Positions 777-6,359 are shown, numbered from the stretch's first letter. The stretch: DNA of 6,359 bases from a virus (IMGVR_UViG_2695420514_000020:1-6359); one strand, 5' to 3'. Notes: a model not told the origin generated them from the letters alone. Made by a program: numbers and translations.

Positions 777-779
777 GCA

Positions 780-811
780 CTGTGTATTCATTCCAACGAG
801 TGAATACACGG
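780..811 (+). other. inverted repeat / stem-loop without a U-tract
   Basis: GTGTATTCA (782-790) pairs with TGAATACAC (801-809); the stem extends with C780-G811 and a T781/G810 wobble; 10-nt loop. No T-run follows, so this is not a canonical terminator. It sits in the 185-bp non-coding gap. Confidence 0.4.
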
Positions 812-871
812 AGCAATGTCGCTCGTAACTAAACAGGAGCCGACTTGTTCTGATTATTGGAAATCTTCTTT

Positions 872-896
872 GCCCTCCAGTGTGAGGGCTTTTTTA
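872..896 (+). terminator. rho-independent terminator
   Basis: GC-rich 6-bp stem GCCCTC (872-877) / GAGGGC (884-889), 6-nt loop, followed directly by TTTTTT (890-895). The orientation works only on the + strand. It lies inside the track ORF 857-1132, arguing that ORF is over-extended. Confidence 0.7.
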
Positions 897-961
897 TATG
901 CATACCAATAACGCTTCACTTGAGGCGTTTTCGTTATGCAATCAAACAGAAGGAGCATCCT

Positions 962-1132
962 ATGCAACAGTTCGCTATTGCAGGGGCGGCATCGGTTCGC
1001 CCTTTCAACCCGATTTTATCGGTACAGCATTCACGAAAAAATATTTTAACCGGAGCAGACTTTAAACAACCAAGAATGAAAAGTTTGCTCGAAAAGCTTT
1101 GGGATATTTTGAAACAACAAGGCCGTCCATGA
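962..1132 (+). CDS. CIII-like small regulatory protein (putative FtsH inhibitor, lysogeny control), 56 aa
   Basis: ATG 962 preceded by AGGAG (951-955) with a 6-nt spacer. Product MQQFAIAGAASVRPFNPILSVQHSRKNILTGADFKQPRMKSLLEKLWDILKQQGRP. The N-terminal FAIAG and C-terminal SLLEK...LWDILKQQG resemble lambda CIII (MQYAIAG... ESLLER... KRLIDILNQPG) as I recall it. The position upstream of the recombinase matches the lambda order cIII-kil-gam-bet. Confidence 0.5.
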   Translation: MQQFAIAGAASVRPFNPILSVQHSRKNILTGADFKQPRMKSLLEKLWDILKQQGRP

Positions 1133-5141: not shown

Positions 5142-5174
5142 CAATCCTCGCACTCGCGGGGATTTCTTTTATCT

Positions 5175-5200
5175 GAACTCGCTACGGCGGGTTTTGTTTT
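5175..5200 (+). terminator. possible weak intrinsic terminator / attenuator
   Basis: Stem GAACTCGC (5175-5182) pairs with GCGGGTTT (5187-5194), including G-U wobbles, around the tetraloop TACG. It is followed by TTTTGTTTT. Marginal stability. Confidence 0.3.
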
Positions 5201-5212
5201 ATGGAGATGATT

Positions 5213-5512
5213 ATGACTTGTTCAACATTCAACCCTTTAACGTTACAGAAATACCATCCAGACCCTGAAGATTTATGCTCACTGTGTGGCGGAAATCATG
5301 GTAAAGCCGCCATGATCGAATGTAAGGACAAAATCCACATATGCCTTAATTGCGTTGATGTCCTCGTTGATATCAAAAATGAAAGAGAAGATAAAAAGCG
5401 TAGCGAGGCTATTCGCGCCTTAGATTCATGGATGCGAGATGGGTATAGTGCTGCGCAAATTTATGACTTAGCCATTTCAAAAGGCGAAATACCAGGTGTG
5501 CGAATCGAATAA
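5213..5512 (+). CDS. zinc-ribbon-containing hypothetical protein (99 aa)
   Basis: ATG 5213 is 5 nt after GGAGA (5203-5207); in-frame ATGs at 5201 and 5207 are alternatives. CSLCGG ... HICLNC gives a CxxC-x18-CxxC pattern. Confidence 0.65.
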   Translation: MTCSTFNPLTLQKYHPDPEDLCSLCGGNHGKAAMIECKDKIHICLNCVDVLVDIKNEREDKKRSEAIRALDSWMRDGYSAAQIYDLAISKGEIPGVRIE

Positions 5513-5547: not shown

Positions 5548-5715
5548 ATGCACTTCCTAGTCACAGGTGAATGGAATGGAGAGCCATTCAACAGAGTTAT
5601 CGAATCGGAGAACATCAACGACTGCTACGACCACTGGATGATATGGGCGCAGATAGCACATGCAGAAGTAACCAATATTCAAATTGAAGAACTGAAAGAA
5701 CACCAAGCCGCCTGA
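5548..5715 (+). CDS. hypothetical small protein (55 aa)
   Basis: ATG 5548 is 7 nt after GGGGAA (5535-5540); the track starts at in-frame TTG 5533. Stop TGA 5713-5715. Confidence 0.5.
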   Translation: MHFLVTGEWNGEPFNRVIESENINDCYDHWMIWAQIAHAEVTNIQIEELKEHQAA

Positions 5716-5728
5716 TTGCGGTTTTTTA
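5705..5728 (+). terminator. weak terminator-like hairpin with T-tract
   Basis: Stem CCGC (5708-5711) / GCGG (5718-5721), extendable by A-U and G-U pairs, with loop CTGATT. It is followed by TTTTTT (5722-5727) and overlaps the stop of the 55-aa gene. Confidence 0.35.
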
Positions 5729-6126: not shown

Positions 6127-6153
6127 GAGCCGCTATATGGCGGTTTCTTTTTG
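6127..6153 (+). terminator. rho-independent terminator, preceded by a second hairpin at 6092-6110
   Basis: Stem CCGC (6130-6133) / GCGG (6140-6143), extendable with wobble pairs, loop ATAT, followed by TTTCTTTTT. Just upstream is a 6-bp hairpin GCCTCA (6092-6097) / TGAGGC (6105-6110). Confidence 0.5.
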
Positions 6154-6167
6154 CCTGGAGAATTAAG

Positions 6168-6359
6168 ATGAGCGATACTAGCCTGATTCCTGAGAAAGAA
6201 GTGATGAACAAGCTCGGTGTTTCATCACGTCAGACAATCTGGAACTATACCAAACGGCACGGATTTCCGAAGCCAGTCAGAACCCACCCCAAATCATACC
6301 TTCGTGAAGCTGTTGAAGGGTGGATTCTTAACGGTGGCGTTAATCAGAAATGCTCCTGA
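6168..6359 (+). CDS. AlpA/Xis-family HTH DNA-binding protein (63 aa); putative excisionase or integrase activator
   Basis: ATG 6168 is 7 nt after GGAG (6157-6160). Pattern IPEKEVMNKLGVSSRQTIWNYTKRHGFPKPV...EAVEGWI matches the AlpA/Xis-family arrangement (…EV…G.SR.TIY…G.FPKP…W) as I recall it. The window ends at its stop codon. Confidence 0.65.
   Translation: MSDTSLIPEKEVMNKLGVSSRQTIWNYTKRHGFPKPVRTHPKSYLREAVEGWILNGGVNQKCS

Follow-up and report, generated by a model that had tools for sequence, protein, structure and literature searches.

A probable prophage copy of the gene for the lambda sRNA PreS, with a covarying 5′ hairpin, in the early-left operon of a lambdoid virus

PreS (LPR1) is an Hfq-dependent sRNA of phage lambda, which was found by RIL-seq by Silverman, Nashef, Bruner, Noy and Melamed (bioRxiv 10.1101/2024.10.31.621285; review, PMC12197685). 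Two forms of ~88 and ~68 nt are present, in the lytic cycle only, and they are enriched on Hfq. PreS activates the host dnaN gene, which encodes the sliding clamp, and represses alaS; for both targets the pairing was proven by compensatory mutations. By pairing upstream of dnaN, the sRNA makes the dnaN ribosome-binding site accessible and increases DnaN. When the seed was deleted from lambda, DNA replication and spontaneous phage yield were reduced in an Hfq-dependent manner, with RNA levels unchanged. Furthermore, the 3′ end of PreS was equated with the terminator tL2a (bioRxiv 10.1101/2024.10.31.621285 for all these results).

PreS can be compared with lambda 6S RNA and StxS at tR′ (PMC7547250). 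All of them are short, Hfq-bound, host-regulating RNAs that end at a terminator within an antiterminated operon. However, PreS has no sequence relation to 6S RNA or StxS. Moreover, pR′ is the promoter from which those RNAs start; for PreS, whose distance from pL exceeds 1 kb, the 5′ end has to be produced by processing.

In this study, we analyzed a viral DNA of 6,359 nucleotides (IMGVR_UViG_2695420514_000020:1-6359), the whole of which is called the window below, and in it the island at positions 777–961. From the comparison of sequences, we conclude that this island is very probably a prophage copy of lambda lpr1, the gene of PreS, joined to the cIII spacer. The element is a known one, with PreS described in lambda and tL2a at its end, and is not new. 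A first-pass annotation had called the region a non-coding island. It was right in that no ORF is conserved; however, the island is not an anonymous spacer, and the gene of the sRNA had been overlooked. As the second terminator-like hairpin (910–929) and the meaning of the first hairpin had also been overlooked, that annotation is incomplete. The features are as follows.

777..814, + strand: stem-loop 5′ of PreS, overlapping PreS +1 to +4 (fold; compensatory replacement in relatives)
811..896, + strand: probable PreS (LPR1) homologue, full-length ~86 nt (lambda primers for +1 and the 3′ end; 86/88 nt match)
811..829, + strand: invariant 19-nt block GAGCAATRTCGCTCGTAAC, including the boxA-like CGCTCGTAA (homologue comparison)
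832..849, + strand: covarying PreS stem-loop, AACAGG (832–837)/CUUGUU (844–849), loop 838–843 (RNAalifold consensus of 17 representatives)
844..872, + strand: PreS seed, or target-pairing region (Table S5 primers of the PreS paper mapped onto the window)
872..896, + strand: intrinsic terminator, lambda tL2a homologue by sequence, forming the PreS 3′ end and its Hfq-binding U-tail (stem 872–877/884–889, loop 878–883, T6 890–895)
897..961, + strand: homologue of the ea10–cIII spacer with a second terminator-like hairpin (910–917/922–929, loop 918–921, tail TTTTCGTT)
962..1132, + strand: cIII-like ORF of 56 aa, given as context outside the sRNA (RefSeq calls the HK542 homologue CIII)

Comparison of the island with lambda PreS

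In the BLAST search, homology to hundreds of lambdoid phages began exactly at position 777, directly behind the upstream stop codon. Positions 777–889 were 100% identical to the ral–ea10 intergenic region in the alignment with phage lambda. The homologous segment of lambda lpr1 is lambda 34011–33924 (complement), and its sole difference from window 811–896 was the loss of the two nucleotides (GA) that in lambda separate the terminator stem from the U-tract. The remaining part of the island, 897–961, aligned with the lambda intergenic spacer between ea10 and cIII. The ea10 gene, which separates both pieces in lambda, was absent from the window.

The ends of PreS were taken from the lambda cloning and T7 primers P810, P1103 and P1104 (GAGCAATGTCGCTCGTAACT...GGGCGATTTTTTA). 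According to these primers, PreS extends from +1 at position 811 to a 3′ end at 896. Since the lambda +1 is derived from a primer and is not a mapped 5′ end, the relation of the hairpin to the 5′ end is approximate. By correspondence with lambda, the short form (~68 nt) would begin near window 831.

The seed was compared in the same manner. The 17 nt that are removed in the lambda lpr1-delta-seed mutant correspond to window 846–862 (TGTTCTGATTATTGGAA) and were unchanged here. Both the M1 triplet CTG (dnaN pairing; 850–852) and the M2 triplet GAA (alaS pairing; 860–862) were present. In addition, positions 846–856 and 861–872 were perfect complements of TAATCAGAACA and CAAAGAAGATTT at the 3′ end of E. 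coli dnaA and in the dnaN leader. The energy of the duplex between PreS and the dnaN leader was calculated to be −42.9 kcal/mol, as against −16.0 ± 3.3 kcal/mol for shuffled sequences (0/1000).

The window copy and lambda PreS therefore share an identical seed, the same terminator stem, the same place in the pL operon and the same complementarity to the E. coli dnaN leader. They differ at two points. In the window, the U-tract abuts the stem directly (GGGC-TTTTTT, in contrast to GGGCGA-TTTTTT in lambda), and the terminator leads straight into the cIII spacer, whereas in lambda ea10 comes next.

The region 770–975 folded far better than its shuffles (z = −5.9, 0/200), and the PreS segment alone gave z = −2.9. 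RNAalifold and the single-sequence MFE fold disagreed over the 5′ third of the PreS RNA. The pairing of the 5′ block with the seed flank, which appeared in the single-sequence MFE fold, had no covariation support, and the RNAalifold stems were preferred. In the internal stem of the RNAalifold consensus, 7 sequences had GC in place of AU at pair 25-38, and GU, AU and GC were all seen at pair 26-37.

With Rfam 15, no matches were obtained at E ≤ 1 in the whole 6,359-nt window, and the best score on 760–970 was 19 bits against a threshold of 73; Rfam 15 has no family for PreS. The EHEC Hfq-CRAC paper and the Pas-sRNA preprint were checked for the locus and gave no match. Nothing usable was found in the older literature on pL processing sites, tL2 and boundary sequences.

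The promoter scan detected no sigma-70-like promoter in the island or just upstream of it. A model in which PreS has its own promoter was rejected, because there was no promoter-like site and the four hairpin families found in relatives (described below) had no common −10-like hexamer.

Terminators, cIII spacer and operon context

The first-pass annotation had placed a strong terminator at 872–896 and had read it as a tL-like internal terminator of a lambdoid early operon. The stem and the T6 tract (872–895) are real, and the energy of the stem-loop was −9.9 kcal/mol. However, the word "strong" is not established. The simple terminator pattern showed just a slight excess in the window (11 occurrences against 6.3 ± 2.5 expected). 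The assignment to the tL type agrees with the sequence, the Sf6 annotation and the PreS paper. The window sequence is that of lambda tL2a through the stem, the Sf6 RefSeq record labels the same sequence "homology to phage lambda; tL2A", and the mEpX1 record labels the same terminator "rho-independent terminator". As judged from sequence, 872–895 is an internal terminator of the tL type in a lambdoid early-left operon, directly homologous to lambda tL2a. The tL2a T-tract computes to lambda 33930, which agrees with the lambda map.

The second hairpin (910–929) had an energy of −9.4 kcal/mol for the inner stem, and of −16.1 kcal/mol with the outer pairing 899–904/935–940. Positions 910–937 were homologous to the hairpin and T-tract that precede lambda cIII. 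The lambda T-tract starts at 33494, which we take to be the position listed for tL2b. In the lambda tL2 cluster, ea10 lies between the terminators and the distance is 436 bp, whereas in the window it is 38 bp. The 3′ halves of both hairpins form a 75% direct repeat at a distance of 38 nt (883–902, TGAGGGCTTTTTTATATGCA; 921–940, TGAGGCGTTTTCGTTATGCA), which may mark the route of ea10 loss or gain.

The spacer also contains a cIII-like ribosome-binding site, AAGGAG, at 950–955. The gene that follows had been described as CIII-like in the first-pass annotation. Its position is the same as that of cIII, and RefSeq uses the name CIII for homologues; however, the ORF at 962–1132 gave no Pfam match at E ≤ 0.01, and its identity to lambda CIII was 28% (pairwise E = 0.025). 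The likeness was limited to two motifs, the N-terminal MQ.AIAG and L.DIL.Q.G.P close to the C-terminus. This comparison suggests that the CIII function of the ORF is less secure than the RefSeq labels on its homologues imply.

The gene order in relatives is repressor, pL, N-type gene, small genes including ral, island, cIII-type gene, recombination genes, xis and int. This order was checked in lambda, HK542, mEpX1 and a 94%-identical E. coli prophage near proA/tRNA-Thr. The + strand of the window corresponds to the pL transcript, and the island lies on the sense strand, upstream of cIII and the recombination genes. We also compared what follows the terminator in 111 metagenomic viral loci, namely those carrying the PreS 5′ block. 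The sequence ran straight into the cIII spacer in 43 loci and into ea10 in 36, and another gene followed in the other 32.

Both terminators could be explained in another way, in which clustered internal terminators of the tL2a and tL2b types make up the whole island and enforce dependence on antitermination, and the short RNA is a functionless by-product. The two tandem signals, each of a hairpin with a T-tract, are what such a cluster would look like, and phage records label the homologous sequence simply as a terminator, which was the view before 2024. However, the 60 nt before the terminator are identical to lambda, including every nucleotide for which compensatory mutation proved the pairing with dnaN or alaS. 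Lineages with a replaced terminator stem still have the seed core and the 5′ block, which would be needless for a pure terminator, and the lambda seed deletion described above lowers phage yield and replication at unchanged RNA levels. Thus, we regard it as highly improbable that the island is a terminator cluster and nothing else, and retain its identification with PreS.

Several other observations were made in the window. The coding sequence of the gene directly before the island is divided between two frames (ORFs 574–672 and 660–776), with an indel near 633/634. An E. coli prophage that is 98% identical over 560–800 has one extra T (GACATTACG, compared with GACA-TACG) and an intact CDS of 66 aa. 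Since the relative has the extra T and the intact CDS, the window copy (574–776) is frameshifted, either as a pseudogene or by a sequencing error. Four further terminator-like hairpins with T-tracts were found on the + strand in short intergenic gaps farther downstream in this operon (5143–5164, 5175–5194, 5705–5724 and 6127–6146). Two of them stand in tandem before the ORF at 5201–5512, and one stands just before the xis-like ORF at 6168. These four hairpins could be more internal terminators or PreS-like sRNAs derived from 3′ ends. The terminator scan also gave a 14-bp hairpin at 222–252 (ATGAACTATCTGGAATTTCCGGATGGTTCAT), followed by TGTTTTGG, which overlaps the junction of ORF 1–225 and the next ORF.

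The 5′ hairpin and the invariant block in relatives

A perfect 9-bp inverted repeat (GTGTATTCA, 782–790; TGAATACAC, 801–809) had been noticed in the first-pass annotation. The repeat is present, and it widens to a 16-bp stem (777–793/798–814) with one A779·A812 mismatch and the loop CAAC (794–797). The energy of this hairpin (777–814) was −20 to −22 kcal/mol, while mononucleotide shuffles gave a mean of −5.5 and a best value of −14.2 kcal/mol in 1000 trials. It is the longest local inverted repeat of the window.

In relatives, four unrelated sequence families were found at the position of the hairpin, directly 5′ of the PreS block, and the stem was kept in all of them, although the four families represent only about three independent replacement events. 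Their arms are as follows.

First family: GTGTATTCATTC...GAGTGAATACAC
Second family: AATGCGGA...TCCGCATT
Third family: AATGACCA...TGGTCATT
Fourth family: ATAGCAGA...TCTGCTAT

All four families have a stem of 14–17 bp, and its base, GC(A)C/G(A)GC, takes in PreS +1 to +4. In an alignment of 14 sequences (A4), 94.5% of the cells were paired, compared with 71.4% in shuffles (0/500 reaching this value). Eight pairs were changed on both sides, and the covariation score was 0.57 against 0.16. Slid controls paired at 23–50% only. Furthermore, the conserved G·U wobbles are compatible with RNA of the + strand only. These results argue for the maintenance of the hairpin as an RNA structure.

The first-pass annotation had offered two roles for this hairpin, a protein-binding site or a processing site. 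The hairpin arms have no common −10-like hexamer, which argues against a promoter and against a sequence-specific protein site. Because the hairpin takes in PreS +1 to +4, we infer that it is an element for processing or stability of the PreS 5′ end, or that it protects the 3′ end of the upstream message. It could create or protect the 5′ end of the sRNA via cleavage of the pL transcript. The PreS paper did not address a processing role of the hairpin or the role of the 19-nt block (bioRxiv 10.1101/2024.10.31.621285).

The body of PreS was also found in diverged forms. Class A is the lambda-type body, and classes B–D occur in Salmonella P22-like phages (ES18, SEN22, Emek and UPF_BP1) and in viral contigs. 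Classes B–D have a 13-nt insertion, the terminator stem GCCGCTC/GGGCGGC and seed variants (GUUCUGGUUAAUCGAAAAAUC), and they retain the covarying stem and the T-tract/U-tail. In the PreS paper, only homologues of at least 92% identity were counted (bioRxiv 10.1101/2024.10.31.621285). The Salmonella P22-like classes are ~71% identical, and the PreS family thus appears to be broader than reported. That the hairpin and the invariant 5′ block are real functional parts of the PreS locus, in a family of this breadth, is proposed here tentatively, as something possible rather than probable.

The island was found in 368 phage records, among them lambda, HK022, phage 21, Stx phages, Sf6 and Salmonella phages; of the 5426 complete E. 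coli genomes, 2237 contained it. A genome-wide motif scan for the taxonomic range gave, outside Escherichia and Shimwellia, mostly chance 19-mers or likely lambda contamination. Four of the loci (L132, L136, L152 and L155) were chance 19-mers with no further homology. The PreS 5′ block was also observed on low-coverage contigs (L135, L141, L153 and others) assigned to Shewanella, Pseudomonas, Pseudoxanthomonas, Bradyrhizobium, Kitasatospora and Bacillaceae. Several of these contigs are ~48.4–48.5 kb long, as is the lambda genome. The block in those unrelated taxa looks like lambda DNA contamination of the assemblies, and such contamination would inflate a BLAST-based host range of PreS.

The hairpin families and the body classes have been reassorted, with the joint in the 19-nt block. 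Mixed loci (L007, L039, L071, L076, L096 and others) combine a family-4 hairpin with a lambda-type body, or a lambda-type hairpin with a Salmonella-type body. There are also hybrid bodies, in which a class A 5′ half is followed by the 3′ half and the terminator of class C. Such combinations indicate that recombination is frequent inside the ~120-nt PreS locus.

These joints recall the annotation of phage Sf6, in which the same 113-nt stretch (~777–889) is recorded as "bsq4; boundary sequence". The bsq4 boundary sequences of P22-like and lambdoid phages occupy the same stretch with flanking genes that differ by phage; the annotation describes a DNA recombination linker and dates from before the RNA function was known. 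Conservation of the island might then reflect a linker for homologous exchange of mosaic modules, and not an RNA function. The exact coincidence with bsq4, the left edge of homology directly after the stop codon, the joints in the 19-nt block with their hybrid A/C bodies, and the three kinds of right-hand neighbour after the T-tract (43, 36 and 32 loci) are all in line with a linker. However, a DNA linker leaves the compensatory changes of the two RNA stems and the G·U pairs specific to the + strand unexplained, and it leaves unexplained the RNA function that was shown experimentally in lambda. As a replacement for PreS, a boundary sequence is very unlikely. As an added property it is compatible with the PreS identity, and part of the invariance of the 19-nt block may come from its use as a recombination linker.

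The 19-nt block was unchanged in seven homologues found by BLAST, including Salmonella phages that are ~71–75% identical overall. A first set of viral contigs had been picked by the 5′-block motif itself and was unusable for judging the invariance. Another set was anchored on the seed by a 15-mer scan of viral contigs, in which most hits were chance and 35 of 122 were true homologues after filtering. In this set, the block was identical in 34 of the 35 homologues, and the other one had one mismatch. The first-pass annotation had proposed to follow the hairpins and the boxA-like motif in related phages; the stem is kept in the four families, and the block that contains the motif is invariant.

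The boxA-like 9-mer CGCTCGTAA (820–828) matches the lambda nutL boxA CGCTCTTAA at 8 of 9 positions, as the first-pass annotation had stated. Its caution that the match may be coincidental was appropriate: 1 site with at most one mismatch was found in the window against 1.30 expected, and at least one such site occurred in 139 of 200 shuffles. The mismatch interrupts the U-run of the boxA core (consensus CGCUCUU(U)A). The 9-mer corresponds to +10 to +18 of full-length PreS and is missing from the 68-nt form. The first-pass annotation had also reported that no boxB-like hairpin is adjacent. There is indeed no boxB, but the covarying hairpin 832–837/844–849, which starts 3 nt downstream and is the nearest one, had been overlooked. 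Its loop of 6–8 nt is not a boxB pentaloop, and it differs between classes (AGCCGA, GACGACGA, GACGAAGA and AGCGAAGA).

A nut-like site, in which the 9-mer and the neighbouring hairpin load Nus factors or N inside the operon, would be suggested by the 8/9 match within an invariant block and by the covarying hairpin just behind it. We also count for it that the tL2a stem GCCCUC/GAGGGC presumably resembles the lambda boxB stem. The likeness to lambda nutL and nutR, however, ends with the boxA match and the presence of a hairpin nearby. The match is at chance level with its mismatch in the U-run, the loop is variable and not boxB-like, and the abundant 68-nt RNA has lost the block altogether. In addition, the PreS module is found in HK542 with a lambda-type N, in mEpX1 with a different N-like protein, with phage 21 N, and in HK022; it is therefore independent of the N type. 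In HK542, the annotated pL lies ~1.2 kb upstream of the island, and in all relatives the island comes after N and further genes; unlike a nut site, it is not at the start of the operon. Because of the variable non-boxB loop, the different N types including HK022 and the distance from pL, a nut function of the 9-mer is unlikely, and we give a nut-like site even less credence than a terminator cluster or a boundary sequence. With PreS as the preferred identity, we infer that the 19-nt block is constrained for a reason other than N-type antitermination. The block could serve as a second seed, a processing signal, an auto-inhibitory element or a Nus-binding element.

Whether the region is coding in homologues had been named as a point to check. 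A small protein from ORF 816–911 (+ strand, 31 aa) or ORF 854–967 (− strand), both of which are in the mechanical ORF list, can practically be dismissed, because only 2 nt separate GGAG from the ATG at 816, diverged homologues have ATA in place of that ATG, the 2-nt and 13-nt indels break the frame across homologues, and ea10 is inserted amid both ORFs in lambda-type phages.

Proposed mechanism and meaning of the locus

By analogy with lambda, we propose the following mechanism. After induction, leftward early transcription from pL would cross the island. Transcripts with their 3′ end at the hairpin and U-tract of tL2a (872–895) would accumulate as a form of ~88 nt and a processed form of ~68 nt, and would be bound to Hfq. 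The single-stranded seed (~846–872) would pair with the host dnaA–dnaN mRNA just upstream of dnaN. This pairing would open the structure that hides the dnaN ribosome-binding site, giving more sliding clamp and more phage DNA replication. The same seed region would repress alaS.

Since no promoter is found in the island, the 5′ end at 811 would arise by processing of the pL transcript. The stem-loop 777–814 may set or protect this end, as a cleavage site of the RNase III or RNase E type, or it may act as a 3′ stabiliser of the upstream message. The second hairpin (910–929) may be a back-up terminator ahead of cIII. For the expression of cIII and the recombination genes, polymerase modified by the antiterminator would have to read through both terminators.

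About 40% of complete E. coli genomes contain the stretch, as do hundreds of phages of the lambdoid, Stx and P22-like groups. Records label it, if at all, only as a terminator or a "boundary sequence", and there is no Rfam family; correct annotation therefore matters. If it is recognised as PreS, such prophages, including Shiga-toxin ones, would encode an RNA that regulates the host sliding clamp and supports lytic replication. The present analysis makes small additions to this, namely the 5′ hairpin with its covariation, the invariant block at the 5′ end of PreS and the diverged classes of Salmonella phages. These may serve as handles on how the sRNA is excised from a long antiterminated transcript.
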